A DNA stretch of 64,000 nucleotides, taken from positions 11,533 through 75,532 of the forward strand of contig CAZIQF010000007.1 in NCBI GenBank assembly GCA_964541525.1. The letters are read 5' to 3'. The notes below the pieces were generated by a model. It made no database searches. It saw only the letters and a program-made list of their open reading frames with translations, and was not told where the DNA came from. Source of the DNA: an uncultured Staphylococcaceae bacterium (GTDB lineage: Bacteria; Bacillota_I; Bacilli_A; ML615J-28; CAG-313). A program made the position numbers and the translations under genes. Positions 4,787 to 60,675 of this stretch are shown here, in pieces (the first letter of the stretch is position 1; every line of letters begins with the position of its first letter).

Positions 4787-4787
4787 G

Positions 4788-5120: not shown

Positions 5121-5174
5121 AAAAATGCAATTTTTTCAAAAAAAAGCCACTTTTTTTGTTTTATTATTGTAAGA

Positions 5175-6446: not shown

Positions 6447-6467
6447 GCAGCATATTTGCTGCTTTTT
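6445..6467 (+). terminator. Intrinsic terminator after sigma paralog 1
   Basis: AAGCAGCA-tatt-TGCTGCTT followed by T-tract. Confidence 0.8.
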
Positions 6468-6507
6468 ATTATATAAATAATTTGTCGATGTCTTTCTTTT
6501 CTTTTTT

Positions 6508-6537
6508 TTGGTAAAGAATTAATGAATGTGGTATAAT
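6508..6537 (+). promoter_or_regulatory. sigmaA-type promoter of glyQS-dnaG-rpoD
   Basis: TTGGTA-18-TATAAT with extended TG. Confidence 0.55.
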
Positions 6538-6587
6538 AAGAAAGAATTATAAACAAATAGAAAAATATTAGAAGGTGGTGTAAAAAT

Positions 6588-7961: not shown

Positions 7962-7984
7962 AAATAATAAGATAGGAGGAAGGC

Positions 7985-9790
7985 ATGATTCCATATAGTA
8001 TTAGACGTAGAATTATTGATGAAACTAATATCGTTGAAGTAGTATCTGAATATATCCCATTAACTAAAAAAGGGAATAGTCATTTTGGAATATGCCCATT
8101 CCACGATGATAATCATCCATCAATGAGTGTTAGTAATAAAGTTAAGATGTTTAATTGTTTTAGTTGCACTGCAAAAGGTAATGTCATTGACTTTGTTTCT
8201 CGCTATGAAAATATTTCAATTGATCAAGCAACAGTAAAATTAGCAAATCGCTTAGGAATTGTTATCAAAAAAGATGTTAGTAGACAAGATGAAAAACAAG
8301 AACGTCTACTAAAAGTTATGAAAGAAGCAAGCGACTTCTATGCATTTATTTTAAAAAATAGTGAAGAAGGAAAAGTTGCGTTAAAGTATTTAAAAGATCG
8401 TGGTATTTCTAATGAAATAATTGAGCGTTTTAAAATTGGTCTTTCACCTTCGCTAAAAGATGGATTATACTCATTTTTATCAAAAAAAGGTTACTCTGAA
8501 CTTGATCAAATTGAACTTGGACTTGTTAAATCGGATAATAATCAAGTATATGATGTTTTCAGACAACGAATTATGTTTCCACTTACTGATAAGTATGGTA
8601 ATGTAGTTGGATTTAGTGGTCGAATTTATACAGATAGTAATCAAGCTAAGTATATTAATTCTAGTGAAAATGTTGTATTCCACAAAGGTGAAGTACTTTA
8701 TAATTTACATAATGCGGCTTTATATGCAAGAAAACTTGATAAGGTTTATATTTTTGAAGGATTTATGGATGTAATTGCTGCCGAAAGAGCTAATATCTTG
8801 AATGGAATTGCAACAATGGGAACAGCTCTTACCAAAGAACATATTGCCGATATTTTAGCTTTGACTAAAAAGATTGTTTTGTGTTTTGATGGTGATGTTG
8901 CTGGAATTAATGCGATGAAAAAAGCAGCAATGTTACTTGCTAATTATAATATCATTCCTGATGCGGTTGTATTACCTAATAATTTGGATCCCGATGAATA
9001 TTTAAAAGCATATGGTGCTGCTGCACTTAATACATATTTGACTACGCAAGCTCGCAATGTATATAGTTGGTTGTATGATCTTGCGATTAAAGATTTAATA
9101 ATTAATGATATTACAAGTATTGAAAAGTTTAAGAAGAGTGTATTTGAATTTATTTCATTCTCAAAGCAGGAGACAATTGTTCAATTTTATTTAGCTAAGC
9201 TTGCTAATGATTTAAATATTGAACTTACAACAATTCAAGGTGACTATTCTAAGGTTGTTACTTCTTTTAATAATCATAATTCATTTAACCAAGTTCCAGT
9301 GTCAAACCAAGATAATCGTCATAATCAAGTTGTAATTGAAGATATTAGTGTGCCAAAAAAAATCAAAAAAGCTTACCAAATTGTTATCAAACATTGTTTA
9401 TTTGACAATCGTTGTTTATTAAAGTATTTAGAAGCGACTAATAATTCTTATATTAGTGAAGAGTTAAATATTGAGTTTTCAATAATTGATTTAATCCATG
9501 ATGAACAGGTACTTGCTGCTAATTTAGAATTAAATATTTCACCAGATAAAATTAATTTAAAAGCGTTAGCTCAAGATGAAATCTATAATGCGTACGTTCA
9601 AAAAATTTTAGATGATCAGTTCATTGATATCACTAATCAAGAGGATTTTAATCAAAGTTTAAACGAAATTATTCGTTTTATTAATAAAAACTATACACGT
9701 GAGTATAAAAATCGCGTTTTAAAAGGGGATAAGTCTGCCTTTTCTGATTTTATTAATTCAAAAAAAGCAGAAGAAATGGAAATAAAATAA
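7985..9790 (+). CDS. dnaG: DNA primase
   Basis: CPFHDD...CFSC zinc finger, RIMFP, FSGR, KYINS, EGFMDV, CFDGDVAG TOPRIM motifs. Confidence 0.97.
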   Translation: MIPYSIRRRIIDETNIVEVVSEYIPLTKKGNSHFGICPFHDDNHPSMSVSNKVKMFNCFSCTAKGNVIDFVSRYENISIDQATVKLANRLGIVIKKDVSRQDEKQERLLKVMKEASDFYAFILKNSEEGKVALKYLKDRGISNEIIERFKIGLSPSLKDGLYSFLSKKGYSELDQIELGLVKSDNNQVYDVFRQRIMFPLTDKYGNVVGFSGRIYTDSNQAKYINSSENVVFHKGEVLYNLHNAALYARKLDKVYIFEGFMDVIAAERANILNGIATMGTALTKEHIADILALTKKIVLCFDGDVAGINAMKKAAMLLANYNIIPDAVVLPNNLDPDEYLKAYGAAALNTYLTTQARNVYSWLYDLAIKDLIINDITSIEKFKKSVFEFISFSKQETIVQFYLAKLANDLNIELTTIQGDYSKVVTSFNNHNSFNQVPVSNQDNRHNQVVIEDISVPKKIKKAYQIVIKHCLFDNRCLLKYLEATNNSYISEELNIEFSIIDLIHDEQVLAANLELNISPDKINLKALAQDEIYNAYVQKILDDQFIDITNQEDFNQSLNEIIRFINKNYTREYKNRVLKGDKSAFSDFINSKKAEEMEIK

Positions 9791-9818
9791 ATAATTTATA
9801 AATATCTATAGGAAGGGA

Positions 9819-11009
9819 TTGGGGGAAATGTTAGATATAGATAAATATGAGGGGCAAATTTCGTCAATAAAAAAGTTCGCTGAAGCAAATCAGTATGTTA
9901 CCATAAGCTATATTAATAAAATCTTCAATTCACCAACTGAAGAATTGTTTGATGAAATTGAAGAATACTTAGATGGTGAAGGAATTGAAATTATTCGTGA
10001 TGCTGATGATTTGTTTTTAGATGAACCAACTGATGATCAATTGTTAGCTGAGTACAATCAATCTTTAGATGAAGAAAAAACAGAAAGCGAAATTAAAACT
10101 GATGCAGTTACGTTAGATCCGGTAAAAGCATATTTATTGGATATTGGTCGTGTTGATTTACTAGATGCAAGTGAAGAAGTATATTATGCTGAGCAAATTC
10201 AAAAAGGAAATCGTGCTGAAAATGCTCTCCTTAATAAGAAAAATCTTACAGAAACACAAATTCAAGAGTTAAAAGAACTTTCTAAAAATGGTATTGCTGC
10301 AAGACAAATATTAATCGAATCTAATTTAAGATTAGTTGTATCAATTGCTAAGCATTATTTAAATCGAGGTTTATCTTTTATGGACTTGATTCAAGAAGGA
10401 AATTTAGGCCTAATCAAGGCTGTATATCGCTTTGATCCGACTAAAGGCTTCCGATTTTCAACCTATGGTACTTGGTGGATTAGACAATCAATTACTAGAG
10501 CTATTGCTGATCAAGCGAGAACGGTTAGAATTCCGGTCCATATGGTTGAAGCAATTAATAAATTAAATAAAGAACGAACTAGGCTAACTCAAAAACTAAA
10601 ACGAGAACCAACTAATGGAGAATTAGCAATCGAAATGGGAATAACTGAAAAGAAAGTTGAATACATTATTCAAATAGCTCAGGATACAATTTCTCTAGAT
10701 ACATCGATTGGTGATGATGAGGAATCAGTTTTAAGTGATTTATTAATCGATACTTCATTAATTAGTCCGATGCAGTATGCTGAAAATCAGTTATATAAAG
10801 AACGCATCGATGCTTTACTTGCTACCCTAACACCTAGAGAAGAGCAAATAATTAAACTTAGATACGGGTTAATTGATAATATTCAACATACATTAGAAGA
10901 TATCGGTCGCGAATATGGAATCACGAGAGAGCGAGTAAGACAAATTGAGATTAAGGCCATTAGAAGGCTTAGACATCCGTCACGAATTAAAATACTAAAG
11001 GAGAATTAA
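9819..11009 (+). CDS. rpoD: RNA polymerase sigma factor RpoD/SigA at the canonical dnaG-linked locus
   Basis: [38 protein letters not shown]...RLRHPSR; dnaG-rpoD-trmK synteny. Confidence 0.93.
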
Positions 11010-21447: not shown

Positions 21448-23541
21448 ATGTATAAAATTGCTATTGATGGTCCTGCAGGTGCTGGAAAGTCGACGATTGC
21501 TAGAATTGTTGCGAAAAAATTAAAAATTGAATATATAGATACAGGTGCAATGTATCGAGCAATTACGTTGAAAGCACTGAAACTGAATGTCGATTTAGAA
21601 CTAGAGGAAAGTTATGAATTTTTAAAAAATACAACTTTAGATATTAGTAATGATCGAGTTATTATGGATTCAGTCGATGTTAGTGAAGAAATCCGATCTG
21701 TAGAAGTAACAGAAAATGTTTCTACACCATCAAAAATAGTAGTTGTTAGAGAATTTTTGGTTGACTATCAACGAAAAATAAGTAATTCAAAAAGTGTAGT
21801 TATGGATGGACGTGATATAGGAACAGTCGTTTTACCAAATGCTGACTTAAAGATTTACTTGAGTGCATCCGTTGAATGTCGTGCAAGAAGAAGAAAACTT
21901 GAACGTGAGGCTAGTGGAATTTTTAAAAGTTTAGAAGAGACAATCAAAGAAATTGAAACTAGAGATTATAAAGATTCAACGCGAAAAATCAGTCCTCTAA
22001 AATGTGCTGAGGACGCTATTGTCATTGATTCGTCTAATATGACAATTGATGAAGTAGTTAATGAAATTATTAAATTAGTGAATGAAAGGGGCTTAATTAA
22101 AATGAGCGAAACAAATCAAAAGTACTTTATTGGTCAAACAGTTAAAGGTACAGTAACAGGCGTTAATAGTAATGCTATCTATTTAGAAGTTGAAGAAGGA
22201 GTCAAAGCAGTAATTTACGCAAATGATTTACTAGAAATGCCTAGTAGTGGTAAATTATATCTTGAATATTCTGAAGGTGCTGAATTTTCTGCTCAAGTTA
22301 AGTCGATTGGTAAAGATAAAAAGCATCCAGATGTTATTCTTTTAACTTTATCTACTAAACTTGAAGCTGAACGTGCACTTGCTTTAGCAAAAGAAAAAGC
22401 TTTAGAAGAAAAAATTGCAGCATTTAAAGTATTAAAAGATGAAGATCAAGTTATCAGTGCAAAAGTTGTTAGAGTAACTAAAAATGGTGCTGAATTAAGT
22501 TATAACAATACAAGATTACATTTATCTTATAAATTAACTTCATTAAAAGAAGCTGAATTACAAGCATTAAAAGGTAAAGAAATTGATGTTATTGTTGTAT
22601 TTGTTAATGAAGAAAGACACTTTGTTGCAGTAAGTCATACTGCAGCACTTAGAAAACAAAAACGTCTTGCTAAAGAAAAAGCACTTAGTGAAGTGCATGT
22701 TGGTGATATCTTAGAAGGTGAAGTAGTATCTTTACTTGCATATGGTGCTATCGTTAAACTTGGTGAAGTAAGTGGTTTATTACATATTTCTGAAATTGAT
22801 CATTTCCCAGTTAAAGATATTAAGAAAGTATTATCTGTAGGTGGTAAAGTTACTGTTAAAGTTATTAAAGTTGAAAATGATAAGATTGGCTTATCAATCA
22901 AGGCATTAACAACTCATCCATGGGAATTATTGAAGGAACAATATCATGTTGATGATGTTTTTGAAGGAACTGTTAAAAAGATTATTCCTGCTGGTTTAAT
23001 CATCGACTTAACTCCTGAATACTCTGGATTAATGCCAAAAGTTGAATATTCTTGGTTAATTAACGAAAAATATGATGATGTAGTGGTTGAAGGTTCTAAA
23101 ATTTTAGTTAAAGTAATGAGTATTGATGACAAAAAACGTCGTGTAAGTTTATCTCATCGTGAAACTGTTGAAAATCGTTGGGCTCACATTAAACTTCGTA
23201 AAGGTCAATTAATCGAAGTTGAAATTAGTTCTGAAAATGATAAAGGTGCATTAGTAAGTTATGAAAACGTAAATGGTTTCTTACCAATTAGCGAAGTTTC
23301 AAGTAGTAAACGTGTAAGTAATGTTACAGACCTATATCCTGTTGGTACTAAAGTTAATGCATTAGTAATGGAATGTGATCCACAACGTGCAAAACTTGTC
23401 GTTTCAATTAAAGCAGTTGAATTAGCTAAAGAAAGAGAATCTTTTGATAATTACATGAAAGAACAAGAAAAAGAACAAAATGATTCTGTGAGCACTTTAG
23501 GCGATATTCTATCTGCATTAACTGATGAAGATGATAAATAG
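21448..23541 (+). CDS. cmk-rpsA: Cytidylate kinase fused in frame to ribosomal protein S1-like multi-S1-domain protein
   Basis: aa1-218 IAIDGPAGAGKST, YIDTGAMYR, MDGRDIG; from M219 about five S1 repeats (e.g. GDILEGEV..YGAIVKLG..GLLHISEI). Confidence 0.9.
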   Translation: MYKIAIDGPAGAGKSTIARIVAKKLKIEYIDTGAMYRAITLKALKLNVDLELEESYEFLKNTTLDISNDRVIMDSVDVSEEIRSVEVTENVSTPSKIVVVREFLVDYQRKISNSKSVVMDGRDIGTVVLPNADLKIYLSASVECRARRRKLEREASGIFKSLEETIKEIETRDYKDSTRKISPLKCAEDAIVIDSSNMTIDEVVNEIIKLVNERGLIKMSETNQKYFIGQTVKGTVTGVNSNAIYLEVEEGVKAVIYANDLLEMPSSGKLYLEYSEGAEFSAQVKSIGKDKKHPDVILLTLSTKLEAERALALAKEKALEEKIAAFKVLKDEDQVISAKVVRVTKNGAELSYNNTRLHLSYKLTSLKEAELQALKGKEIDVIVVFVNEERHFVAVSHTAALRKQKRLAKEKALSEVHVGDILEGEVVSLLAYGAIVKLGEVSGLLHISEIDHFPVKDIKKVLSVGGKVTVKVIKVENDKIGLSIKALTTHPWELLKEQYHVDDVFEGTVKKIIPAGLIIDLTPEYSGLMPKVEYSWLINEKYDDVVVEGSKILVKVMSIDDKKRRVSLSHRETVENRWAHIKLRKGQLIEVEISSENDKGALVSYENVNGFLPISEVSSSKRVSNVTDLYPVGTKVNALVMECDPQRAKLVVSIKAVELAKERESFDNYMKEQEKEQNDSVSTLGDILSALTDEDDK

Positions 23542-25935: not shown

Positions 25936-26172
25936 ATGAATTTTAATAAAGCATTACAATTTATTGCAGATAATAATATTCAACCAGATGCGGTATTTGC
26001 ATTAGTGGAAAAAGTTAGATCAATGGATTTATCAAATGAAACTAATATTAGAAGTGTCATAAGAGATGTCTCTAAACTTGCAAATAAACCTATTGATGCT
26101 GCTCAAGAAGATCGAATAGTCAGAGAAATTCTAAAAAATGGTGTTAACGATAATTTGTTCAATATGATTTAA
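25936..26172 (+). CDS. spoVIF: Stage VI sporulation protein F family protein
   Basis: 78 aa; pattern ..QPDAVFALVEKV...DLSNETNIRSVIRDVSKLANKPI...EDRIV recognised as SpoVIF-like from memory; RBS GAGGTG. Confidence 0.7.
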   Translation: MNFNKALQFIADNNIQPDAVFALVEKVRSMDLSNETNIRSVIRDVSKLANKPIDAAQEDRIVREILKNGVNDNLFNMI

Positions 26173-26954: not shown

Positions 26955-26994
26955 TTAGGGTTTTAATGATTCGTTTAGGAAGTAATTCCTGTAA

Positions 26995-27021
26995 AAGCGC
27001 ATCAATGGATGCGTTTTTTTT
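26995..27021 (+). terminator. Terminator after rpmF
   Basis: AAGCGCATC-aatg-GATGCGTTT plus long T-tract. Confidence 0.8.
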
Positions 27022-27045
27022 ATTATTTTAATTGGTAGGTATAAT

Positions 27046-27987
27046 ATGGATTCACTTAAACATTATTCAGTATTATTAAATGAGAGTATTGAACTGCTAA
27101 ATATTAAACCTGATGGTATTTATGTTGACTGTACCTTAGGTGGTGGTGGTCACTCCGAAAAAATTTTAGAAAAATTAACGACAGGTCACTTATATGCTTT
27201 CGATCAAGATCTTTATGCGATTGAAAAAGCAAGAGTTCGTTTAGAATCATATCTAGATAAATTAACAATTATCAATAGTAATTTTAGTAATTTAAAAACG
27301 GAATTGAGCAATTTAAATGTTGAACGTATCGATGGTGTTATTTATGACTTAGGTGTATCTAGTTTTCAATTTGATTTACCTGATCGAGGTTTTAGTTATC
27401 GATTAGATGGTCCTCTTGATATGCGAATGAACCAAGATGCCGTACTTTCTGCATATGATGTCGTTAACAATTATACTTTTGATGATTTAAAACGGATTTT
27501 GTATGAATACGGAGAAGAAAAGTTTGCTCCTAATATTGCGAAGATGATTGTTAAGAGTCGGATGGAAAAACCAATCACGACAACTTTTGAACTAGTAGAA
27601 GTTATTAAAAAAGCATTACCGGCAGCCATACTTAGAAAACAGGGTCATCCAGCTAAACAAACTTTTCAAGCAATTAGAATTGAAGTAAACAAAGAATTAG
27701 AAGTGTTAAAAAATAGTTTAAACGATGCTGTATCAATGCTAAATGAGTTAGGTCGTGTCGTGGTCATTACCTTTCATTCATTAGAGGATCGAATTGTTAA
27801 ACAAACCTTTAAGCATTTAACAACGCTTGACCTTCCAAAAGGAATTCCATTTATCCCCGAACATATGAAAATTGAATATAGATTAGTTAATAGTAAAGTT
27901 ATTTTACCAAGTGAAACTGAACTAACCGAAAATAAACGTAGTCATTCGGCTAAATTAAGATGTCTTGAAAAAAATCAAAATGCCTAG
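27046..27987 (+). CDS. rsmH: 16S rRNA m4C1402 methyltransferase
   Basis: HYSVLL, DCTLGGGGH, DLGVSS, LDMRM, ITFHSLEDRIVK. Confidence 0.97.
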   Translation: MDSLKHYSVLLNESIELLNIKPDGIYVDCTLGGGGHSEKILEKLTTGHLYAFDQDLYAIEKARVRLESYLDKLTIINSNFSNLKTELSNLNVERIDGVIYDLGVSSFQFDLPDRGFSYRLDGPLDMRMNQDAVLSAYDVVNNYTFDDLKRILYEYGEEKFAPNIAKMIVKSRMEKPITTTFELVEVIKKALPAAILRKQGHPAKQTFQAIRIEVNKELEVLKNSLNDAVSMLNELGRVVVITFHSLEDRIVKQTFKHLTTLDLPKGIPFIPEHMKIEYRLVNSKVILPSETELTENKRSHSAKLRCLEKNQNA

Positions 27988-28013
27988 AATTTGCAGTTCT
28001 AGACATTTTTTTT
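27977..28013. terminator. Bidirectional terminator between rsmH and aldose epimerase
   Basis: AAAATGCCTAGAA...TTCTAGACATTTT inverted repeat at convergent gene ends. Confidence 0.7.
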
Positions 28014-28890
28014 AAAATAATTTAATTTCATAATTAATAATTTTAGATTTGTTAGGTTCTACCCAAATTAAATCACGTTTTTTTGTAAAATCACCATCAG
28101 TATCAGGACGATCACCACATCCAATCCATGGCTCTAGACAAATAAACGGCGCATCTTTATTCGTAGGAGTCCAAATTCCAAGCATTGGAAATTCAGGGAA
28201 TTTAAACTCAACACCATGATTATTTAGCGGATGTTTTAAAGTAATAGTATTTGTATTGATGTTTTCAAAAATTAACGCATCATAATCATAATCGGAATAT
28301 ACAAGTGGAAGAACTTTTAGATTAGTAAAAGTACGATATCGTTTCATAAAATCGATTGTTCCATCTTGTAAATTAACGACAGGCATTTCATAGGTTCCAA
28401 CTTTGCCAAATTCAATCACATAATCAGTAAATTGTTCACCTTCATGTAGAGGAACTTTAAAAGCTGGATGGAGTCCTAAATTAAATGGCATTGCTGTATC
28501 AGAGTGATTAGTAAATTCAAGATTACTTTTAATTGTATCGTTTACTAGTTCATAAGTAATTTCAATTTCAAAATTAAATGGATATAATTTCAGTGTAGTT
28601 TCGTTACTAGAAGTTATAAAGATAATTTTGTTAGCTTCATGATGTTTTACTGTAAATAAAGTATCTCTTAAAAAACCATGTTTTTGCATTGGATAATTTT
28701 TGCCATTAATATTTGCTGAATCATTTTTAATTGTTCCAATATTTGGCCAAAGAATAGGTGCACTACGTCCCCAATATTTGGGATTACTGTCATGTAAATA
28801 GTCAGTTGATTTAAACTCTATTCTTTTAATCTCTGCTCCTTGATCGGAAATTTCTAATGTTATTAATTCATTTTTAATTGTATAATTCAT
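28012..28890 (-). CDS. Aldose 1-epimerase family protein (LacX-like)
   Basis: WGRSAPILWP, KHGFLRD, GLHPAF, FICLEPW; ATG at 28890 with AAAGGTGG RBS. Confidence 0.85.
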   Translation of the reverse strand: MNYTIKNELITLEISDQGAEIKRIEFKSTDYLHDSNPKYWGRSAPILWPNIGTIKNDSANINGKNYPMQKHGFLRDTLFTVKHHEANKIIFITSSNETTLKLYPFNFEIEITYELVNDTIKSNLEFTNHSDTAMPFNLGLHPAFKVPLHEGEQFTDYVIEFGKVGTYEMPVVNLQDGTIDFMKRYRTFTNLKVLPLVYSDYDYDALIFENINTNTITLKHPLNNHGVEFKFPEFPMLGIWTPTNKDAPFICLEPWIGCGDRPDTDGDFTKKRDLIWVEPNKSKIINYEIKLF

Positions 28891-28976
28891 CTTTACCACC
28901 TTTATGTTTACAGTAAAATTATATCATAATCTAAGAGATATTTCAAGTAAGATTAGTATAATTACCAATAAATATT

Positions 28977-30881
28977 TTATCCAGTATAAATTATAACACT
29001 TCCTCCTTCGATTAATCGTTCACCAGGAGATGGAACTTGGGAAATAACGGTATCGCCACTACCTTCAATGATAAAATTATATTTATTGGTAAATGGAAGT
29101 TTTTTAACATTGAAGCCAATATAATCATCAACTATATAAACATTTTTATCGATATAATACCGAACATCTTCCTTAATACCGCCTTCTACAGGGCCCAAAT
29201 TAAGAAATTTAAAACTTTCTTGAAGTGCTTGTTTGACTATCGGAGCAGCTACTACACCACCATATTGAATTGTATTTTTTGGATTGACAATCGCAAAATA
29301 GATGGCAATTTTAGGATCATTCATTGGAGCAATACCTAGAAATGATAGAATATATTTGCCACTAGCGTATGAGCCATTTTCTGCAATCTGAGCGGTACCT
29401 GTTTTACCACCTACTCGATATCCATCGATATAAGCACCTCTTGCGGTTCCTAATGATGCAACCGATTCTAATGCGTATCTAACAATATTTGATGTTTCTT
29501 CACTAATTACTTGTCGAACTTTAGTTGGTGACTTTTCTAAAAGGATTTGATTATCTTTAGTTATCTTTGAAAGAATATAAGGTGTATTAAGAGTTCCACC
29601 ATTTACTGCCGCACAAGAAGCATTGATTAATTGGATGGCAGTAACTGCATTTCCTTGACCAAAACTAGCAGTTGCCAATTCGACATTACCTATATTTTCT
29701 TCATTAAATAATATTCCACTCGCTTCCCCTAATAAGTCAATACCAGTCTTTTTGCCTAAGCCAAAGTTTCTAATATATTTGAATAGGCGATCTTTTCCTA
29801 ATCTCATTCCAATCGTCATAAAACCTGGATTACAGGAATTTTGAATTACTTGGAGAAAAGTCTGATTTCCATGCCCTCCAGCTTTCCAATCTTTTATTTT
29901 GGTTCCATCTATTATCAAGTAACCAGGATCATTATACATTTCGCCAATTTTAAAAACACCTTCTTCAAGACCAGCAGCATAAGTAATAATTTTTTGAACG
30001 CTTCCTGGTTCATATACTTTCCAAATTGGCAGATTACGATTGTAAACTGACTCGGGATATGCTTGATAATTATCGAGTTCAAAAGTTGGTCTACTAGCCA
30101 TTCCATAAATTTCTGAAGTTTTAGGATTCATTGCAATCATAAACGCTTCATCGGCATTATACTTAGCCATTGCGTTGTTTAGTAATCGTTCTAAGGAAAG
30201 TTGAATGTTTAAATCAATCGTTAAATATAAATCAGCTCCGTTAACGGCACTTTCATAATAACTGGTTAAATCGCTAATCGTGTTACCATGAGCATCGGTA
30301 AAGATTTCTAGACCTCCATTTGTTCCTTTTAAATATGAATCATAGATATACTCTAATCCGGTAATTCCTTGATTATCACTACCAACAATACCGATAATTG
30401 GTGCCATAATCGAACCATAAGGATAACTTCTAATACTATCACTTACAACATAAATTCCAGATAGATTTTCTTTAATGATTTGAACCGCTTGATTTGTTGT
30501 AATATTTTTACCACTTGGTTTAATAATTTCTACTGATACTTTTTTATTTAAATGCTTTAAAATTGTTTCGCTTGATACGTTTAAGATTTTACTTATTTTT
30601 AATGCTGTTTCTTCTTTATTTGTAACTTGTTTTGGAATTGTAACAAGCGTTGGAGCTAAAGAAGAACCAACAATTAAATTTCCGTTTCGATCATAGATAT
30701 TGCCCCTTACACCAGCTACTGGTGCATTTCTTGTCCAAAGCGATAAAGCCAGATCATAGTAATTTTGTCCTTTAATTACTTTTACATAAGCAAGTCTGGA
30801 AAATAAACCAACGAAGGCAATAATTGTAATCAAATAGACAAAAGTTAGACGTTTTAGTTTAGATATTTTATAATATTTCAT
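28977..30881 (-). CDS. spoVD: Class B penicillin-binding protein, SpoVD-like (cortex transpeptidase)
   Basis: N-terminal TM, RGNIYDRNG, YEPGSVQK (SxxK), QNSCNPGF (SxN), GKTGTAQ (KTG), single C-terminal PASTA-like domain, ~634 aa; start at 30881 uses GGTGA RBS. Confidence 0.75.
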   Translation of the reverse strand: MKYYKISKLKRLTFVYLITIIAFVGLFSRLAYVKVIKGQNYYDLALSLWTRNAPVAGVRGNIYDRNGNLIVGSSLAPTLVTIPKQVTNKEETALKISKILNVSSETILKHLNKKVSVEIIKPSGKNITTNQAVQIIKENLSGIYVVSDSIRSYPYGSIMAPIIGIVGSDNQGITGLEYIYDSYLKGTNGGLEIFTDAHGNTISDLTSYYESAVNGADLYLTIDLNIQLSLERLLNNAMAKYNADEAFMIAMNPKTSEIYGMASRPTFELDNYQAYPESVYNRNLPIWKVYEPGSVQKIITYAAGLEEGVFKIGEMYNDPGYLIIDGTKIKDWKAGGHGNQTFLQVIQNSCNPGFMTIGMRLGKDRLFKYIRNFGLGKKTGIDLLGEASGILFNEENIGNVELATASFGQGNAVTAIQLINASCAAVNGGTLNTPYILSKITKDNQILLEKSPTKVRQVISEETSNIVRYALESVASLGTARGAYIDGYRVGGKTGTAQIAENGSYASGKYILSFLGIAPMNDPKIAIYFAIVNPKNTIQYGGVVAAPIVKQALQESFKFLNLGPVEGGIKEDVRYYIDKNVYIVDDYIGFNVKKLPFTNKYNFIIEGSGDTVISQVPSPGERLIEGGSVIIYTG

Positions 30882-30896
30882 CTTTTTCACCATTAT

Positions 30897-30925
30897 TATC
30901 TATGAAAAAAAGACCTGATTTATCA
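30897..30925 (-). promoter_or_regulatory. sigmaE-type promoter candidate for spoVD
   Basis: Minus strand TGATAAA-14 bp-CATAGATA (last -10 position deviates from T). Confidence 0.5.
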
Positions 30926-31091
30926 CAAAAAAATATTTATTGATATGCTTATTTTCTTAGCTATTTAGGAGTGAACACATTAATTTTATATATCGTCAGA
31001 TAACAAATTTTTATTGGTGGAAAGTTTTATTAAAAATGCAAAAGGCTAAAATAGTTTAGATATTTTAGTCTTTTTTGTTGGATTAATGGTT

Positions 31092-31120
31092 GTATTTATT
31101 TGCTTTTTAATTCATAAAAT
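31092..31120 (+). promoter_or_regulatory. sigmaE-type promoter candidate for murE-mraY-murD
   Basis: GTATTTA-14 bp-CATAAAAT, 22 nt upstream of the ATG at 31143. Confidence 0.5.
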
Positions 31121-31142
31121 TAATTATAAAGGAGTCCCCCAT

Positions 31143-32552
31143 ATGAAAAATTACGAATTATTGGAAAAATCTAAAATTAAAACAACAATTAATTATCTTC
31201 ATGAAGTATCTAAAGTTACGATTGATTCAAGAAAGGTTAAAGAAGGTGCTGTTTATTTGTGTGAGGATTTACAGTATTTAGAAGAAGCGATTTTAAAAGG
31301 AGCTAAAACGATTATTACATCTTATGAAATTTTTAATTTCAATAATCACAATGTTAATATAATTAAAGTTAATAATCTTAGAAGTACTTATGCTTTATTA
31401 CTTAAAATATTTTATGAAAACTTTAAATTTCCATATTTAATCGGTGTTACAGGTACTTGTGGTAAAACGACAGTTACAACTCTGCTTTATCGCTCACTGA
31501 AACTTGATCATGATGTAGTCCTTATTTCTTCAAATGGTATTTATCAATCCTACCAGGGAAAAGAATTATATGTTTCTACAACTAATACTACTCCTAGCTT
31601 AGAAGTTATCTATGATAGCATGTTTGGGAATAATTATCAATATGCAATAATTGAAGTAAGTAGTCAAGGCATTGATAATGGACGTATTTTAGGACTAGAA
31701 TTTGATACAGCCGTTTTCTTAAATTTAAGTCATGAACATTTAGACCATCATTTAAATCTACAAAATTATTTTAAAAGTAAACTACAATTATTTTCCCAAC
31801 TTAAAGCGGACGGTTTCTGCATTGTAAATCAAAATTTTGAACAATATCAAGAAATATTTAACAATACAAACGGAAAACCAATATTGTTCAATCCTCAGGA
31901 ATTACAATTAATATCAAGAAATCTAAAAACGCAAACTATCATGATTAATGATGAAAAAGTTGAAACCATTTTTAATGGTGACTATAATATAGAAAATATT
32001 ATGGCCGTTGTTACTATCTTAAAAATGCTTAAACAGAATGTAAATAATTTAATTATAACGCTTAAATCAAAAGCAGAAATTGATGGTAGACTCAATATAT
32101 TAGAGGAGCATAACCGAATTTTTGTTGTTGATTATGCTCATACACCAGTTGAAACCTTTAGTTTATTATCTCATCTTGTTAAGTATAAAAAGAAACGCTT
32201 AATTACGGTGATTGGTTGTGGTGGTAATCGTGATCAAAGTAAAAGACAAATCATCAGTAATACCTGTATGAAGTTTTCCGATTTTGTGATTTTTACTGAG
32301 GATAACAATCGTAATGAGCCAAGGATAAAAATTATCAATGATATGTTAAAAGGAGTACATCAAAATCACTACCAAGTAATTTTAAATCGAGTTGCTGCTA
32401 TCAAAAAAGCAATTTCAATCAGTAATGATGATGATATTGTTGTTTTAATCGGTCGAGGAAATGAACAATACTATGATCTATTTCATCAAAAGGTTGTCAC
32501 TGATATGGCCGTTATTAAATTATTTTTAGAAGAGGAACAAGCAAATGAATAG
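31143..32552 (+). CDS. murE: UDP-MurNAc-tripeptide ligase MurE (divergent)
   Basis: GVTGTCGKTT, IEVSSQG, DYAHTP, GCGGNRD, EDNNR; ATG 31143 after AAAGGAG. Confidence 0.85.
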   Translation: MKNYELLEKSKIKTTINYLHEVSKVTIDSRKVKEGAVYLCEDLQYLEEAILKGAKTIITSYEIFNFNNHNVNIIKVNNLRSTYALLLKIFYENFKFPYLIGVTGTCGKTTVTTLLYRSLKLDHDVVLISSNGIYQSYQGKELYVSTTNTTPSLEVIYDSMFGNNYQYAIIEVSSQGIDNGRILGLEFDTAVFLNLSHEHLDHHLNLQNYFKSKLQLFSQLKADGFCIVNQNFEQYQEIFNNTNGKPILFNPQELQLISRNLKTQTIMINDEKVETIFNGDYNIENIMAVVTILKMLKQNVNNLIITLKSKAEIDGRLNILEEHNRIFVVDYAHTPVETFSLLSHLVKYKKKRLITVIGCGGNRDQSKRQIISNTCMKFSDFVIFTEDNNRNEPRIKIINDMLKGVHQNHYQVILNRVAAIKKAISISNDDDIVVLIGRGNEQYYDLFHQKVVTDMAVIKLFLEEEQANE

Positions 32553-33528
32553 TTATTTATTAATTGATGCAATGTTATTTTTAATTTTTGGCATTCTATT
32601 ATTTCTATTAATGTTACCATATTTAAGAAAGCTAAAATTTGGTCAAAATATTCGAAATGAAGGTCCTAGTAAGCACCTTGTAAAGAAAGGTACGCCAACA
32701 ATGGGAGGATTAATTATCCTAATTTGTTGCTTAGTATTTATGAGCTTATTAATGATTGAATTTAAAGATGAACTTAACATTGATCATCGAAAATTTATGT
32801 TATTATTTATTCCAATGTTTGCTTACGGTATTTTAGGATTAATCGATGATATTCTAATTGTCGTAAAGAAAAAAAATGATGGATTAAAACCAAGTGTTAA
32901 GTTTTTAGTTCAATTAATCTTAGCAGCTGGAATTTATTTTGTTTATTTAAGTGTTTTTAACACCAATGAATTAAACTTTTTTGGTGTTTTGGTCGATATA
33001 AAATTTTTCTATGGTTTGTTAATAATTTTTTTACTTGTAGGTGTCACAAACGCAACCAACTTAACCGATGGTATCGATGGTTTACTTGCAGGTTGTGCGA
33101 TTATTTCTTATCTAAGTTTTGGTATCTTGGGCATTTACAAAAATGAATCAAGTGTAATTATCTTTTCTTTTGCAATGTGTATTGCTTTAACAGTATTTTT
33201 ATTTTTTAATTTACCCAAAGCAAGTGTTTTTATGGGAAATGTTGGTTCTCTATTAATCGGAGCTGGCTTAGTTATGGAAAGCATTATTCTTAGAATGGAA
33301 CTATTATTGTTTTTTATCGGTTTTGTTTATCTATTAGAAACGATTTCGGTAATTGTTCAAGTCTGGTTTTTTAAGAAGACCAAAGGTGAAAGACTATTTA
33401 AAATGTCACCTTTTCATCACCATTTAGAATTAAATGGATTCAAAGAAATCGAAATTGATATTATGCTGTATGGCTTACAGGTTGTTATGTGTGCCATCGG
33501 TATTTTAATCGGAATGTTGGTGTTTTAA
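32545..33528 (+). CDS. mraY: Phospho-MurNAc-pentapeptide transferase
   Basis: KKGTPTMGG, DD motif, NATNLTDGIDGL, FMGNVGS, FKMSPFHHHLE. Confidence 0.92.
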   Translation: MNSYLLIDAMLFLIFGILLFLLMLPYLRKLKFGQNIRNEGPSKHLVKKGTPTMGGLIILICCLVFMSLLMIEFKDELNIDHRKFMLLFIPMFAYGILGLIDDILIVVKKKNDGLKPSVKFLVQLILAAGIYFVYLSVFNTNELNFFGVLVDIKFFYGLLIIFLLVGVTNATNLTDGIDGLLAGCAIISYLSFGILGIYKNESSVIIFSFAMCIALTVFLFFNLPKASVFMGNVGSLLIGAGLVMESIILRMELLLFFIGFVYLLETISVIVQVWFFKKTKGERLFKMSPFHHHLELNGFKEIEIDIMLYGLQVVMCAIGILIGMLVF

Positions 33529-34751
33529 TGAAGGAATATTTATTATATGGAATGGGAAAATCAAATCTAGCGGTAAAAAAGTATTTTGATCAGCAAAGAA
33601 TTAAATATACAATTTACTTGGATACCATGGATTTAAACAAAGTTAAAATATCAAAAGATTTAGTGGTAATTAAAAGTCCGGGAATTAAAAGCGATACTAA
33701 ACTAATGCAGTTACTAATCGATCAACAAATTGCAATTTTAACCGACATCGGTCTTTTTTATCAATTGTTCAAAGATGTTTTCTATATTGGTATTACCGGA
33801 ACACTCGGTAAAACGACTACAACTTTACTTTGTCATCATTTATTAAAAGCGGATTTAAAAGACATCGAAATGGCTGGTAATATTGGTATTCCAATTTTTG
33901 AATATGCATTTAAACCACCTAAATATTTAATTGTTGAATTATCCAGCTTTGAACTCGAATATTGTGGTCATTTTAAACCGAATATTATGTTATTTCTTAA
34001 TTGCTATGCCCATCATCTGAACCATCATCAAAATTTTAAAGCTTATTTACAAGCAAAAATGCAACCGATTAAAAATATGGATCAAAACGATCTATTAATC
34101 GTTAATCAAGAATTGGAAACATATTTTAATTCAGCTTTATTACTACCTAAAGTCATATTTTATGCGAAAAGCGATGTATTGAAAGTTAAGATACCACAAA
34201 ATCAATTCTTTAATTATGATTATAATCTTGATAATTTTCATGGGTTAATTCCGATTTTAAATTTTTTCAAAATAAATCAGGATCATATATTCAATCGCTT
34301 GTGTACTTTTAATCCACCTACATATCGGATGGAAACTATTTATCAGACTGATCAATTAATCATCATCAATGACTCTAAATCAACCTGTTTGAAAGCGACT
34401 ATTGAAGCGATCAAATCTTTAAATAAAAACTATTCTTCATTTAATTTAACTTTAATTATGGGAGGAAAAACTGATTTAGATGAGTTGATAATTTTTAAAC
34501 CTGAATTGAAATCTTTAATCAATAATTTACAATGTTATTATTATGGTGAAAATAAGGATTTACTAAATCAAATTAGTCCGGGTATTGTTAGAAAAACATT
34601 AGAAGAAGTAATCGAAATAATTGATGTTGATTCTAAAAAACAAGTAATTTTATTTTCACCTGGAGCTCAAAGTTTAGATCAATTTGGTTCATTTATCATT
34701 AGGGGCAACACCTTTAATACTTTGATGCTGAAAAAAATAAAACATTTATAA
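33528..34751 (+). CDS. murD: UDP-MurNAc-L-Ala--D-Glu ligase MurD (divergent)
   Basis: KSPGI, GITGTLGKTT, GNIGIP, ELSSFEL, NDSKST, LFSPGAQSLDQF; ATG overlaps mraY stop (TAATG). Confidence 0.85.
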   Translation: MKEYLLYGMGKSNLAVKKYFDQQRIKYTIYLDTMDLNKVKISKDLVVIKSPGIKSDTKLMQLLIDQQIAILTDIGLFYQLFKDVFYIGITGTLGKTTTTLLCHHLLKADLKDIEMAGNIGIPIFEYAFKPPKYLIVELSSFELEYCGHFKPNIMLFLNCYAHHLNHHQNFKAYLQAKMQPIKNMDQNDLLIVNQELETYFNSALLLPKVIFYAKSDVLKVKIPQNQFFNYDYNLDNFHGLIPILNFFKINQDHIFNRLCTFNPPTYRMETIYQTDQLIIINDSKSTCLKATIEAIKSLNKNYSSFNLTLIMGGKTDLDELIIFKPELKSLINNLQCYYYGENKDLLNQISPGIVRKTLEEVIEIIDVDSKKQVILFSPGAQSLDQFGSFIIRGNTFNTLMLKKIKHL

Positions 34752-34770: not shown

Positions 34771-34779
34771 TGGTATAAT
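34771..34779 (+). promoter_or_regulatory. Extended -10 sigmaA promoter for gltD-nadD
   Basis: TG-g-TATAAT, 30 nt upstream of the ATG; separates gltD from the mur unit. Confidence 0.55.
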
Positions 34780-34809: not shown

Positions 34810-36009
34810 ATGGAAAATATTAATCAAGATTTAAAACGATGCTTAAATTGTAAAAAACCAAATTGTATTAATGGATGTCCTTTACATACAGATATTCCTT
34901 TATTAATCAATTTATTGAAAGCAAATAAAATTAATGATGCAATAAAAGTTCAATACCAATATAATAGTATTCCTTTTATTTGTGGTAAATTATGTGATCA
35001 TGAACGTCAATGTTTAGGAGGATGCAATCTTAAGTCTGACCCAATCAAGATTAATGAAATGTGTTTTGAACTAGGAATTAAACGCCTAAAATCGGAAGTT
35101 AATTTATCTGTATTAAATGGTAAGATGGTCGCCGTAGTGGGTGGGGGAATTGGGGGTTTAATTGTCAGTGAACGTTTATTAGAAACTGGTTTCAAAGTTG
35201 ATTTGTTTGAAAAAACGGATCGATTAGGTGGTGTTTTAGCTCAAACAATGCCAGATTTTAGGTATGATAAGCGCTATTTAAATTTGTGGATTGAACGATT
35301 ATATAAACTAGGATTAAATGTTAAATTTAATCAAATAATTGGGAATAATCTTTTTATTACTGATTTATGTAAATATGATGCAATTGTGATTGCAGTAGGC
35401 GCATCAAATCCCCGTAAATTATTTAGCAATGATTTTAGTATAGATGCGTTGACGATTCTAAATCAAGCCAAACATAATCTAGTAAAGATTAGTAATCAAA
35501 AGGTAATTGTACTTGGAGGTGGCAATACCGCATTTGACGTCGCACGAACAATGAAACGGCTTGGAAATCAAGTTTCAATCGCTTACAGAAGGGATTTAGC
35601 TAATTCATTAGCTTCTAAAAAGGAAATTAATTTAGCGATTGAAGAAGGAATTGAAATTTTAGAATGTTTAGCACCAAAAGATGTTGTAAGAGTTAAAAAT
35701 AATTTATTGGAAATTACCTTTAATAAAACATTATTGAAAAATGAAAATGAAACTCGAAAAAGCTTTATTACAACTGATGAGATTGTGAAAATGGAAACTA
35801 ATTTAATAATAGAAGCCGTAGGCGCAAGTTGTGATTTGTCATTTTTAGATCAATCAATTTTAGATGAACATGGCTACGCAAAGTCGATTATTAATGATAA
35901 CTTGTATATTATAGGGGATGCTTATTTAGGACCTTCATCATTTGTTAAAACAAATCAAACGGCAATTATTTGTGCGAATGATATTATTAGTAAAGGACAA
36001 AAACTATGA
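34810..36009 (+). CDS. GltD/NfnB-like FeS flavoprotein (FAD- and NAD(P)-dependent oxidoreductase)
   Basis: CLNCKKPNCINGCP, PFICGKLC..ERQC..GC, GGGIGG and GGGNTAFD Rossmann motifs. Confidence 0.8.
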   Translation: MENINQDLKRCLNCKKPNCINGCPLHTDIPLLINLLKANKINDAIKVQYQYNSIPFICGKLCDHERQCLGGCNLKSDPIKINEMCFELGIKRLKSEVNLSVLNGKMVAVVGGGIGGLIVSERLLETGFKVDLFEKTDRLGGVLAQTMPDFRYDKRYLNLWIERLYKLGLNVKFNQIIGNNLFITDLCKYDAIVIAVGASNPRKLFSNDFSIDALTILNQAKHNLVKISNQKVIVLGGGNTAFDVARTMKRLGNQVSIAYRRDLANSLASKKEINLAIEEGIEILECLAPKDVVRVKNNLLEITFNKTLLKNENETRKSFITTDEIVKMETNLIIEAVGASCDLSFLDQSILDEHGYAKSIINDNLYIIGDAYLGPSSFVKTNQTAIICANDIISKGQKL

Positions 36010-36572
36010 AAAAAGTTCTTTTTGGTGGATCATTTAACCCACCAACGATAGCTCATTATGAGATAATTAATTATTTAGCTACATCTCAGCTTTATGATGA
36101 AATATTAATTTTACCAAATGGTGATACCTATGAATTTGGTGGTAAATCCTTGAATAATTTTGACCATCGAGTCAAAATGTTACATTTAATGTGTAATCAT
36201 TTACCTAATGTTAAAATTTTAGAAATTGAAAATCAGGAAGAATTTTTGGGAACTGCCCATACGCTTAAATTACTAAATCATCCAACCTTTGTTATCGGTG
36301 CTGATTGTTTAGACCATTTACATTTATGGAAAAATTTTGAAACTTTAATAAACGAAAATCAATTTCTCGTTTTTGCAAGAAGTAGTCTCCAAGATGTTCA
36401 TCGCATAATTTTAAATAATCCCAATCTTAAGGCCTATGATCAGCATTTTACAATCGTTGATTTAAAAACTAGTGATGTTTCTTCGAGTGAATTTAGATTA
36501 ACTAAAAATGAAAAAATGGTAAAAGATGAAGTTCTAGAATATATTAAAAGTAATCATTTATATGGGTTTTAA
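36006..36572 (+). CDS. nadD: Nicotinate-nucleotide adenylyltransferase
   Basis: FGGSFNPPTIAH, IGAD, VSSSEFR. Confidence 0.85.
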   Translation: MKKVLFGGSFNPPTIAHYEIINYLATSQLYDEILILPNGDTYEFGGKSLNNFDHRVKMLHLMCNHLPNVKILEIENQEEFLGTAHTLKLLNHPTFVIGADCLDHLHLWKNFETLINENQFLVFARSSLQDVHRIILNNPNLKAYDQHFTIVDLKTSDVSSSEFRLTKNEKMVKDEVLEYIKSNHLYGF

Positions 36573-40909: not shown

Positions 40910-41590
40910 ATGATTTTAAAAGAAATGCCGTTAACTGAGCAACCTAGAGAAAAATTATTATCAATTGGTAGTGATAAACTATCTAATATTGAACTGCTGG
41001 CTATCCTACTTCGAACCGGAACAAAGGATGCTAATGTACTTAAAGTCGCAGAAGAAGTTATTTATTTGTTAGAAGATATTTCTGATTTGACAACACTTAC
41101 AATTCAAGAACTGATAGATATTAAAGGAATCGGTTTATCGAAAGCTATTACCATTTTAGCAGCTGTTGAACTAGGAAAAAGAATCGTCGAAAATAAGCAA
41201 AAAAACTTAAGTTTTTCTACGCCTGAAGCGATCTTTGAGTATTTTTACCCACGAATGGTAAATCTAAAACAAGAAACTTTATACGGAATCTACTTAGACG
41301 TTAGAGGTAAGGTAATATCGATTAAGCATCTGACAACAGGTACGATAACATCAACACTAATTGATCCAAAATTAATTTTCAAATGGGCTTATAAACTTTC
41401 TGCATCGAATATTATACTAGTTCACAATCATCCAAGTAAAGACTCCACCCCATCGCTTGCTGACATTAAAATTACAGCAGAATTAATCAAGCAATCAAGG
41501 GTAATTCAAATCGAAATTATTGATCATATTATTATCGGTGATGATTTCTTCAGTATGAAGCGAAGTATCAAAAATTATAAATTGTTCTAA
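40910..41590 (+). CDS. radC: RadC family JAB-domain protein
   Basis: PREKL, ELLAILLRTG, HNHPS...D, IDHIIIG. Confidence 0.93.
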   Translation: MILKEMPLTEQPREKLLSIGSDKLSNIELLAILLRTGTKDANVLKVAEEVIYLLEDISDLTTLTIQELIDIKGIGLSKAITILAAVELGKRIVENKQKNLSFSTPEAIFEYFYPRMVNLKQETLYGIYLDVRGKVISIKHLTTGTITSTLIDPKLIFKWAYKLSASNIILVHNHPSKDSTPSLADIKITAELIKQSRVIQIEIIDHIIIGDDFFSMKRSIKNYKLF

Positions 41591-41613
41591 ACATTAGTTA
41601 AATTTCATAAAAT
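41585..41613 (+). promoter_or_regulatory. sigmaE-type promoter candidate for spoIVFA/B-like genes
   Basis: TTCTAAA-14 bp-CATAAAAT; an overlapping TATAAT (41613-41618) lies too close to the ATG to leave room for the RBS. Confidence 0.55.
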
Positions 41614-41627
41614 ATAATGGTGATAAA

Positions 41628-42209
41628 ATGAATAATGCAAGAACAAGAAGAATGCTAAGAGAACGAAAAAAGCATAAAAAGAAACGATATAAATTAATTG
41701 ATCGACTTTTTTATCAAATTTTTTTTAGTTCACTTTGTTTATTGATTTTATCATATGCAGCAACGATTAATTTATCTCTACACCAAGAGATTACATCAAA
41801 CTTTAACTTTTTAAAATTAACTAAAACAATTGATAATCTTTTTGCCACTAATATTTTCAATCAAGGTGAAGTGTGTGTTTATTCACAAACTTTTTATGAA
41901 AGTGTAGAATTTAGAAATGACATTAATTACATCAGCAACAGCAGTTTTTCGGGAGTTGAAACATTAGTAGATGGTTTAGTTATTAATATCAAGAAAGAAA
42001 ACAATTTATATAATGTAACTATTCAAGCTAGCGATGACACAATTTATTGTTATCAAGGATTAGAACAAATTGATGTTAGAATTTATCAATACGTTAACGC
42101 AAAAGATGTAATCGGCAAAAGTTGTTACATCAGTGATCACTATGAATTTAAGTTATTAATCATTAAAGATGGTAAGTATTTAGATTATTATGAAAATGCC
42201 GAAGATTAG
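41628..42209 (+). CDS. spoIVFA: SpoIVFA-like membrane protein with degenerate M23/LytM domain
   Basis: Basic N-terminus, one TM, M23-like DGLVINI...VTIQ...YQGLEQIDV...DVIG lacking metal ligands; radC...spoIVFB...rplU synteny. Confidence 0.65.
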   Translation: MNNARTRRMLRERKKHKKKRYKLIDRLFYQIFFSSLCLLILSYAATINLSLHQEITSNFNFLKLTKTIDNLFATNIFNQGEVCVYSQTFYESVEFRNDINYISNSSFSGVETLVDGLVINIKKENNLYNVTIQASDDTIYCYQGLEQIDVRIYQYVNAKDVIGKSCYISDHYEFKLLIIKDGKYLDYYENAED

Positions 42210-42792
42210 AGTTCACTATTCAATTTTCTTTTTGGTTTTAATTAGTTTATTTACAGATAATTTATTTAAAATTCTTGTAATTCTTTTATGTATTATTATC
42301 CATGAATTTGCCCATTTCATCGCTTTATCCTATTATAAAAAACAACTGGTTAGTATTGAAATATCGTTAATCGGGGGCATGATGAATGCTGATAAAGAAG
42401 GCTTATCACTAAAAGCCAAATTAATTGTTAATCTATCAGGGGTTTTTGCCAATTTATTAATTATAATTGGTTTACAAATCTTTAATTTTAATCAACCATT
42501 TTTAATTAGTTATAACTTGCTTATGATTATTTTTAACTTAATTCCGATTATTCCCCTAGATGGATATCAAGTTTTAAATGATATTTTATTAAGTGTTTAT
42601 GAAGAAGAATTTACCTTTGTTATTATTAAATCCATTGATATTATCTGTTTAATTATTTTAGGTATTATTTTGCTGTGGCTAAAAATTTATGGTTTATTCT
42701 TTATTTGGTTATTTCTTATATACAAATTGTATATGTATAATTTAGATGACAAAAAATTAAAAAAATACTTTTTACTTTATCGTAATACTTAA
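42190..42792 (+). CDS. spoIVFB: M50 intramembrane metalloprotease, SpoIVFB-like, no CBS domain
   Basis: IHEFAH (HExxH) and FNLIPIIPLDG (NxxPxxxxDG); overlaps spoIVFA-like gene. Confidence 0.75.
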   Translation: MKMPKIRVHYSIFFLVLISLFTDNLFKILVILLCIIIHEFAHFIALSYYKKQLVSIEISLIGGMMNADKEGLSLKAKLIVNLSGVFANLLIIIGLQIFNFNQPFLISYNLLMIIFNLIPIIPLDGYQVLNDILLSVYEEEFTFVIIKSIDIICLIILGIILLWLKIYGLFFIWLFLIYKLYMYNLDDKKLKKYFLLYRNT

Positions 42793-59460: not shown

Positions 59461-59526
59461 AGGATGAATGAATAAAAGTTCAAGTTTTTATTTTTCAATC
59501 GCTTAAAAAAGGGGGATGAAAATAAT

Positions 59527-60599: not shown

Positions 60600-60675
60600 T
60601 TTTTATTTCCTATTATTCTTGAAAAAAAATTAATTTTTTAGTATAATGGAGATAAATAATAATAAGGAAATAACT

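Follow-up and report, generated by a model that had tools for sequence, protein, structure and literature searches.

A reduced dcw cluster with an inverted spoVD-type gene and sporulation-class promoter motifs in an uncultured gut member of the Bacilli

Introduction

In the division and cell wall (dcw) cluster of Bacillus, mraZ, rsmH, ftsL, pbpB, spoVD, murE, mraY, murD, spoVE and murG follow one another on a single strand. A 64,000-nucleotide stretch of contig CAZIQF010000007.1 (assembly GCA_964541525.1, positions 11,533 to 75,532; hereafter "the window") from an uncultured bacterium of the Bacilli carries a stripped version of this cluster, in which the one remaining gene for a class B penicillin-binding protein (PBP) is inverted and divergent from murE. 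This locus raises the question of which PBP has been kept, how the inversion arose, and whether the new order changed the control of the wall-synthesis genes or only their positions. A first-pass annotation of the window had read the order as a stable reorganisation that uncouples cortex precursor synthesis from the vegetative rsmH transcript. Here we report that the arrangement is real and inherited, that the retained PBP is by its sequence the sporulation paralogue SpoVD, and that the divergent region carries promoter motifs of a class otherwise found before sporulation genes, whereas the separation from rsmH is older than the inversion.

Results

Gene identities were assigned with Pfam and NCBIfam profiles, an independent gene call on an identical contig, and conserved ribosome-binding sites (RBSs); the latter two moved three start codons from the mechanical list of open reading frames (ORFs). 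Within this DNA of about 30% GC, whose coding capacity is strongly biased to the forward strand, the annotated order was recovered: rsmH (27046-27987, forward) encodes the 16S rRNA m4C1402 methyltransferase (PF01795, 415 bits; TIGR00006, 377 bits, cutoff 154), followed by an aldose-1-epimerase family gene (28012-28890, reverse; 292 aa; PF01263, 96.6 bits), the PBP gene (28977-30881, reverse; 634 aa), murE (31143-32552, forward; 469 aa), mraY (32545-33528, forward; TIGR00445, 234 bits, cutoff 192) and murD (33528-34751, forward; 407 aa; TIGR01087, 246 bits, cutoff 212). The PBP start was placed at 30881, where the ORF list had 30893, on the basis of a conserved RBS (GGTGA) and of relatives with 634 aa. 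The murE gene has the RBS AAAGGAG and the same length in the independent gene call; its product keeps an intact P-loop and shows DNNR where diaminopimelate-type enzymes have the DNPR motif.

Thus, rsmH, an ftsI-class PBP gene, murE, mraY and murD remain neighbours within 7.7 kb with the epimerase gene as the sole interruption, but they are not co-oriented, since the PBP and epimerase genes lie on the opposite strand. Much of the canonical content is missing as well. The canonical co-oriented order against which the first-pass annotation had set this locus was seen in about 40 Bacillales loci; its list of missing genes also held, as mraZ, ftsL, a second class B PBP gene, a SEDS gene (spoVE/ftsW) and murG are absent from the 64-kb window and from the 10 kb on either side of it in the same strain, as is ftsQAZ. 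The flanks were taken from contigs 100% identical to the window, bringing the genome covered to ~84 kb.

To place the PBP, we built a neighbour-joining tree of 131 PBPs in which genes from loci with the tandem pbpB-spoVD arrangement, the canonical state in those Bacillales, were distinguished as pbpB-position (upstream) or spoVD-position (downstream). The window PBP groups, together with its clade, among the spoVD-position proteins, adjoining the spoVD-position genes of three other small-genome metagenome-assembled genomes (MAGs; loci L023, L043 and L063) that retain pbpB upstream, and all 60 bootstraps recovered the split between upstream and downstream genes with the window clade among the latter. 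The window PBP shares 46% identity with spoVD-position proteins and 32% with pbpB-position proteins. The best NCBIfam model is TIGR02214 (spoVD; 632.5 bits, the next model reaching 314 bits), and the best match in the PDB is C. difficile SpoVD (7rcz; 384 bits over residues 45-565, next 233 bits). The domain architecture is that of a class B PBP, with strong PF03717 and PF00905 matches and a single weak C-terminal PASTA domain (19.6 bits), and the catalytic motifs are SVQK294, SCN349 and KTG493, SVQK occupying the site of the usual STFK of relatives. On these sequence grounds the window PBP is a SpoVD orthologue and not PbpB. A grouping with vegetative PbpB/FtsI, which would have overturned the assignment, is therefore not what we find.

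The history of the inversion was read from compared loci of relatives, designated by L-numbers; L093 and L095 derive from the same strain as the window. The canonical arrangement (mraZ> rsmH> PBP> murE> mraY>) is found in an Acholeplasmataceae MAG (L006). An un-flipped arrangement with a reverse-oriented epimerase gene (rsmH> epimerase< PBP> murE> mraY> murD>) occurs in L002, L088-L091, L003, L004, L011 and L012, and the flipped one (rsmH> epimerase< PBP< murE>...) in the window, in L082-L085, L086 and L087 (PBP identity to the window 89% in four samples, 81% and 78%, respectively) and, separately, in L005 (61%). L002, L003 and L005 belong to the MAGs JAFQFT01, JAMPAL01 and JAZSNL01, respectively. 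The epimerase gene lies between rsmH and the PBP gene throughout the epimerase-bearing clade. In a concatenated tree of PBP, MraY, MurE and RsmH, the flipped subclade of the window was monophyletic in 100 of 100 replicates and sister to an un-flipped clade (clade A), with L005 outside. Hence, only the PBP gene was inverted, in the ancestor of the window's subclade, and the flip most parsimoniously arose twice, the second time in the distant L005 lineage. It is fixed and stably inherited across the four species-level lineages of the subclade, which bears out the stability proposed for the reorganisation.

The boundary between the PBP gene and murE has received varied inserts, namely mntP in L082, a 314-aa ORF (orf314) in L002, and TMEM164 plus a 580-aa ORF (orf580) in L091, and in more basal lineages murE directly abuts the PBP gene. 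The 261-nt PBP-murE spacer of the window contains no remnants of mntP, orf314, TMEM164 or orf580, and no RNA element in Rfam at the gathering threshold or at E<=1. The two mur genes at the ends of the downstream block diverge quickly: MurE and MurD are 64% and 62% identical to the window where the PBP is 89% identical, and ~40% where it is 78%. Replacement of these two genes by horizontal transfer was considered because of their ~40% identity to L002 against 85-92% for der and valS, and was rejected, as identity falls smoothly (64, 46-50, 40%). This decay with distance indicates that the two genes are simply fast-evolving, far faster than PBP and MraY across the clade.

Two explanations would deny the inversion this history. 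A mis-joined or chimeric contig at ~27990 or ~30900 could produce the same gene order, and AT-rich intergenic DNA could in principle mislead assemblers, although we found nothing in favour of such an error. Logan contigs of four runs span the rsmH/epimerase (27990), epimerase/PBP (28900-28977) and PBP/murE (30900) junctions, two of them representing ~99%-identical strain variants from other studies; the same gene order appears on an independent 16.7-kb contig of a different run and in three further species-level lineages from other samples. Misassembly at the two junctions that the first-pass annotation had singled out for checking is thus rejected, and we regard it as vanishingly improbable. 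The PBP gene could instead be a phase-variable segment inverted by a site-specific recombinase acting on flanking repeats. A 16-nt inverted repeat (15/16 matching) does flank the gene (left arm 28963-28978, right arm 30930-30945), a length reached in only 1 of 300 shuffles, and the clade shows both orientations, the flip having arisen at least twice. However, L082, L086 and L087 lack the repeat, the best repeats of the other flipped lineages (10-11 nt) being at chance level; the region has no recombinase gene; orientation tracks phylogeny; and no strand-switch joints occur among the contigs of the four runs, which as contigs may hide rare variants. An invertible switch was rejected on these grounds and is very unlikely, and the repeat may be fortuitous or, at most, a trace left by the inversion.

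Sigma-E drives spoVD, spoIVA, gerM and yqfCD in B. subtilis, where its consensus is roughly kmATATT-14-CATAcAnT. We compared 38 upstream regions of the window's strain, using its own sporulation genes as controls. Three controls carry motifs close to this B. subtilis consensus: spoIVA (TTATATT-14-CATATCAT), a gerM-like gene (GTATATT-14-CATATGAT) and a yqfC-like gene (TCATATT-14-CATATGAT). Upstream of the PBP gene, the reverse strand has TGATAAA-14-CATAGATA (30897-30925), with CATA 19 nt before the ATG. This motif matches the minimal sigma-E core (ATA in the -35, CATA in the -10, 14-nt spacer) with the geometry of the three control motifs. The core ATA-N16/17-CATA, whose background is 3e-4 per nt per strand, occurs among the 38 regions only before spoIVA, the gerM-like gene, the yqfC-like gene and the PBP gene. 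The PBP motif is kept in the flipped L082, L086 and L087 and in the un-flipped L012, and a CATA -10 precedes the PBP gene in L003-L006 and L011.

On the forward strand of the same spacer, murE is preceded by GTATTTA-14-CATAAAAT (31092-31120), with a conserved CATA-type -10. All nine relatives that have the intergenic region share the "CA" of its CATA(A/T)A(A/C)T, while the rest of the spacer has diverged, and L086 and L087 show the complete ATA...CATA motif. In the 45 nt ahead of the start codon, CATANNWT is found for five of eight sporulation homologues (spoVIF, spoIVFA-like, spoIVA, gerM-like and yqfC-like) and murE, and for none of 27 other genes (Fisher ~2e-4 from these counts); the housekeeping class TGnTAnnnT (TGnTATAAT) precedes some 15 housekeeping genes, including the epimerase gene and the gltD-like gene downstream of murD. 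At the motif level, these counts support assigning both motifs of the divergent region to the sporulation-gene class and not to the housekeeping class. The back-to-back sigma-E-type promoters of the first-pass annotation consequently stand in part: the motif class is present on both strands, but the murE -35 is weak and the PBP motif mismatches the consensus at several positions outside the core. Window-wide scanning was less useful than this gene-proximal comparison. A strict sigma-E pattern (<=1 mismatch) is not enriched across the window (7 observed versus 9.9 expected), the looser ATA/CATA core becoming informative once restricted to gene-proximal zones, and a generic sigma-70 scan in 30% GC DNA is uninformative (67 sites versus 66.6 expected).

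Between the convergent rsmH and epimerase genes, a G+C-containing hairpin with an A-tract and a T-tract (~27977-28013) overlaps the rsmH stop codon, is followed by T-runs on both strands, and folds with -10.4 kcal/mol on the forward and -13.4 kcal/mol on the reverse strand (z-scores -2.5 and -3.9); L088 has a hairpin of unrelated sequence at the same site. The bidirectional terminator annotated here is thereby a credible one. The epimerase gene has its own putative promoter, TTGAAA-17-TGATATAAT (28918-28946, reverse; 11/12 positions plus TG), with an extended -10 kept in 12 of 13 relatives. Downstream of murD, which no terminator follows, the gltD-like oxidoreductase gene is preceded by the extended -10 TGGTATAAT (34771-34779, forward), which matches the organism's housekeeping promoter class and agrees with the separate sigma-A promoter attributed to this gene.

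These signals also date the separation of the PBP gene from rsmH. The canonical L006, which has no flip, already carries a terminator and a CATATAAT element between rsmH and the PBP gene; in all epimerase-bearing relatives, the reverse-oriented epimerase gene and a hairpin separate the two; and in the un-flipped sisters, a terminator already follows the PBP gene, and murE is preceded by a CATA-type element of its own. The insulation of rsmH is therefore older than the flip, and the proposal that the flip caused the uncoupling does not hold. With each unit already under signals of its own in relatives that lack the flip, the inversion as such was probably almost neutral; as far as the motifs indicate, it merely set two sporulation-class promoters back to back.

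Several genes of the same strain point to a sporulating organism. Upstream of the window, L093 (100% identical over a 7.2-kb overlap) carries at 3671-9853 spoIVA-hbs, a Germane-domain (GerM-like) gene, rpsU and yqfC/yqfD-like genes, among them the three controls with near-consensus sigma-E-type motifs; SpoIVA, 10 kb upstream of the window, scores 562 bits with TIGR02836, above the 460-bit equivalog cutoff. Within the window, a 78-aa SpoVIF-family gene (25936-26172; Pfam, 59.8 bits) lies between gpsA and yceD, and the CATATTAT element before it is kept in all six orthologues examined. At 40910-42792, radC is followed by an M23-like gene (41628-42209) and an M50 peptidase gene (42190-42792), a pair in the syntenic place of B. 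subtilis spoIVFA-spoIVFB between radC and rplU; CATAAAAT recurs 22 nt before the M23-like (spoIVFA-like) gene, and mreBCD and minCD are absent from the radC-rplU stretch, their usual place. At 58669-61422, genes for an S11 D-Ala-D-Ala carboxypeptidase and a Gate-domain protein, a 164-aa ORF and rluB repeat the B. subtilis order dacB-spmA-spmB-rluB; the dacB-like gene has no CATA-type motif upstream.

The host is an AT-rich, small-genome gut member of the Bacilli keeping core endospore genes, present in pig, sheep and other gut metagenomes, with a DNA depth that reaches 360x in one run (X3). The closest relatives of its PBP are metagenomic proteins, the nearest named ones coming from a Bacilli bacterium, Anaeroplasma bactoclasticum, Acholeplasmataceae, uncultured Mollicutes and Coprobacillus sp. 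CAG:698 MAGs. Reduced-genome orders of this kind (RFN20, RF39, ML615J-28, Anaeroplasmataceae) were surveyed by Field, Bowerman & Hugenholtz (2024; PMC10868615), who predict walled and wall-less, sporulating and non-sporulating species mixed, with most PBPs lost and with spo0A and mur genes kept by many Anaeroplasmataceae genomes.

Other features of the surroundings were noted in passing. A terminator-like hairpin (26993-27018, forward; 11-bp stem and T-run) after rpmF lies 28 nt before rsmH, whose TATAAT ends 2 nt before the ATG (27038-27048); most relatives lack a recognisable rsmH promoter, and the rsmH mRNA may be leaderless or dependent on read-through of that terminator. After murD come the gltD-like gene, nadD, a T-box and valS; the first two (34810-36572) are overlapping separate ORFs in the window and a single fused protein of 578-590 aa in L087-L090. 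Conversely, a single 697-aa ORF at 21448-23541 combines cmk with rpsA (S1 domains); the two are separate genes (218 and 475 aa) in L091. Two full-length sigma-70 paralogues with regions 1.2 to 4 (5193-6446 and 9819-11009) both score below the RpoD equivalog cutoffs; one follows dnaG and is the canonical sigA, and the other follows an rnf operon. Downstream in the same strain (L095, 10851-13388), an 88-aa ORF, possibly rpsT by size and position, abuts lepA (lepA-hemN) without the gpr and spoIIP that B. subtilis has between them, in keeping with the reduced sporulation gene sets of PMC10868615. In the un-flipped L088-L090 (1-3834), genes for surface proteins of 800-1500 aa with Flg_new, Big_2 and Amidase_2 domains lie just upstream of spoVIF, a place from which such giant genes are absent in the window.

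Discussion

We propose that the dcw cluster of this lineage has been reduced to three separately controlled units: rsmH, ending in the bidirectional terminator; the SpoVD-orthologous PBP gene, followed by the aldose-epimerase gene with its own housekeeping promoter; and murE-mraY-murD, probably continuing into the gltD-like gene and nadD. The inversion of the PBP gene in the ancestor of the subclade would have created the 261-nt divergent control region, from which a mother-cell sporulation sigma factor would transcribe the PBP gene and the genes for the lipid-I precursor enzymes, whose products would supply and cross-link cortex peptidoglycan. We favour this reading with modest confidence. 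The acting sigma factor, the timing of expression and the role in the cortex are what we infer within it, because no sigE gene was seen and the assignment has a motif basis; of the first-pass claim that cortex precursor synthesis is uncoupled, the sporulation-class motifs thus support the regulatory part, the flip as its cause falls away, and the cortex part stays conditional.

Several observations weigh against this reading. The PBP score lies below the equivalog cutoff of TIGR02214 (632.5 versus 688 bits), its -10 ends in A and not T, and in the window itself the murE -35 is without an ATA core. An ATA/CATA regular expression found only 3 of 42 Bacillales spoVD promoters, so the pattern appears to trade sensitivity for specificity, and few genes underlie its interpretation in this lineage. 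Neither sigE, spoIIGA nor spo0A was seen in the ~84 kb of genome covered. Were these murE, mraY and murD genes the sole copies in a cell with a vegetative wall, a sigma-A route would have to exist as well. Finally, CATA is absent before the PBP gene in the un-flipped sister clade A, and CATATAAT and CATAAAAT also hold usable sigma-A -10 hexamers (TATAAT and TAAAAT).

The last two points lend themselves equally to a different explanation, in which a neutral rearrangement struck a decaying cluster, the SpoVD-type PBP serves as the general or only division transpeptidase, the mur genes are vegetative, and the CATA motifs are sigma-A variants or coincidences of AT-rich DNA. With pbpB and ftsL missing from the cluster clade-wide, including in the canonical-order L006, a walled cell would have to rely on some PBP for division; moreover, the PBP/murE boundary tolerates the varied insertions described above, and a gut metatranscriptome holds fragments of the PBP gene and murE, albeit as part of only four tiny contigs, on the PBP gene, murE and spoVIF/yceD. 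Coincidence, on the other hand, accounts poorly for a CATA class confined to sporulation homologues and murE while housekeeping genes use TGnTATAAT, for the "CA" that persists before murE in every orthologue despite a diverged spacer, and for a PBP motif sharing its geometry with those of spoIVA, gerM and yqfC. We consider the neutral explanation possible but rather unlikely as a whole. Further from the ordinary is the idea that peptidoglycan synthesis has been reduced to a sporulation-only function, serving mainly or only the spore cortex, in a lineage adjoining the wall-less Anaeroplasma and Acholeplasma, which we think doubtful. That the vegetative machinery is gone in this sense (PbpB, FtsL and MraZ, and MreBCD and MinCD at their conserved site) is a tentative suggestion, and it is similarly improbable that the whole remaining set (SpoVD, MurE-MraY-MurD and the DacB/SpmAB-like proteins) is under mother-cell sigma control. 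The data are compatible with ordinary thin-walled spore-formers and, at lower probability, with cortex-only peptidoglycan.

Returning to the three-unit reading, the locus represents a genuine and stable form, particular to this lineage, of a known cluster, and the flip itself is ordinary. The surviving genes and their apparent regulation seem the more interesting part, the vegetative partners being gone from their conserved sites. To our knowledge, wall and spore loss in Mollicutes and their relatives has been described only by surveys of gene presence and absence. The present locus adds gene order and regulation: the retained paralogue is the sporulation SpoVD and not the vegetative PbpB, and murE-mraY-murD share the promoter class of spoIVA, gerM and yqfC. 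If this is correct, wall loss could begin by confining peptidoglycan synthesis to sporulation, and were the sporulation-only idea true, the lineage would be a living intermediate toward the wall-lessness of Mollicutes. Either way, the locus offers a small divergent control region together with a natural comparison between flipped and un-flipped sisters.

Among known systems, the dcw cluster of B. subtilis is the closest. It likewise has rsmH, a SpoVD-type PBP gene, murE, mraY and murD as neighbours, the window PBP being orthologous to its second, spoVD-position PBP, and through the internal sigma-E promoters of spoVD and spoVE it too has sporulation-type promoter motifs among wall-synthesis genes. 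In contrast to it, the window lacks mraZ, ftsL, pbpB, spoVE and murG, has a foreign epimerase insert and an inverted PBP gene, precludes vegetative read-through from the upstream rsmH, and appears to place a sporulation-class -10 before murE itself, not only before spoVD or spoVE. For the PBP, C. difficile SpoVD (7rcz) is the nearest solved structure, and the transpeptidase motifs are present in the window protein; the latter has SVQK instead of STFK, in a relationship known from sequence alone. The genotypes of Field et al. (PMC10868615) resemble that of the window in belonging to reduced-genome, host-associated Bacilli with most PBPs lost and subsets of mur and sporulation genes kept. That study is a survey of the presence and absence of KEGG orthologues and covers neither the order of the dcw genes nor the inversion of the PBP gene nor the classes of promoter that precede them, its text mentioning SpoVD once and "dcw" not at all.

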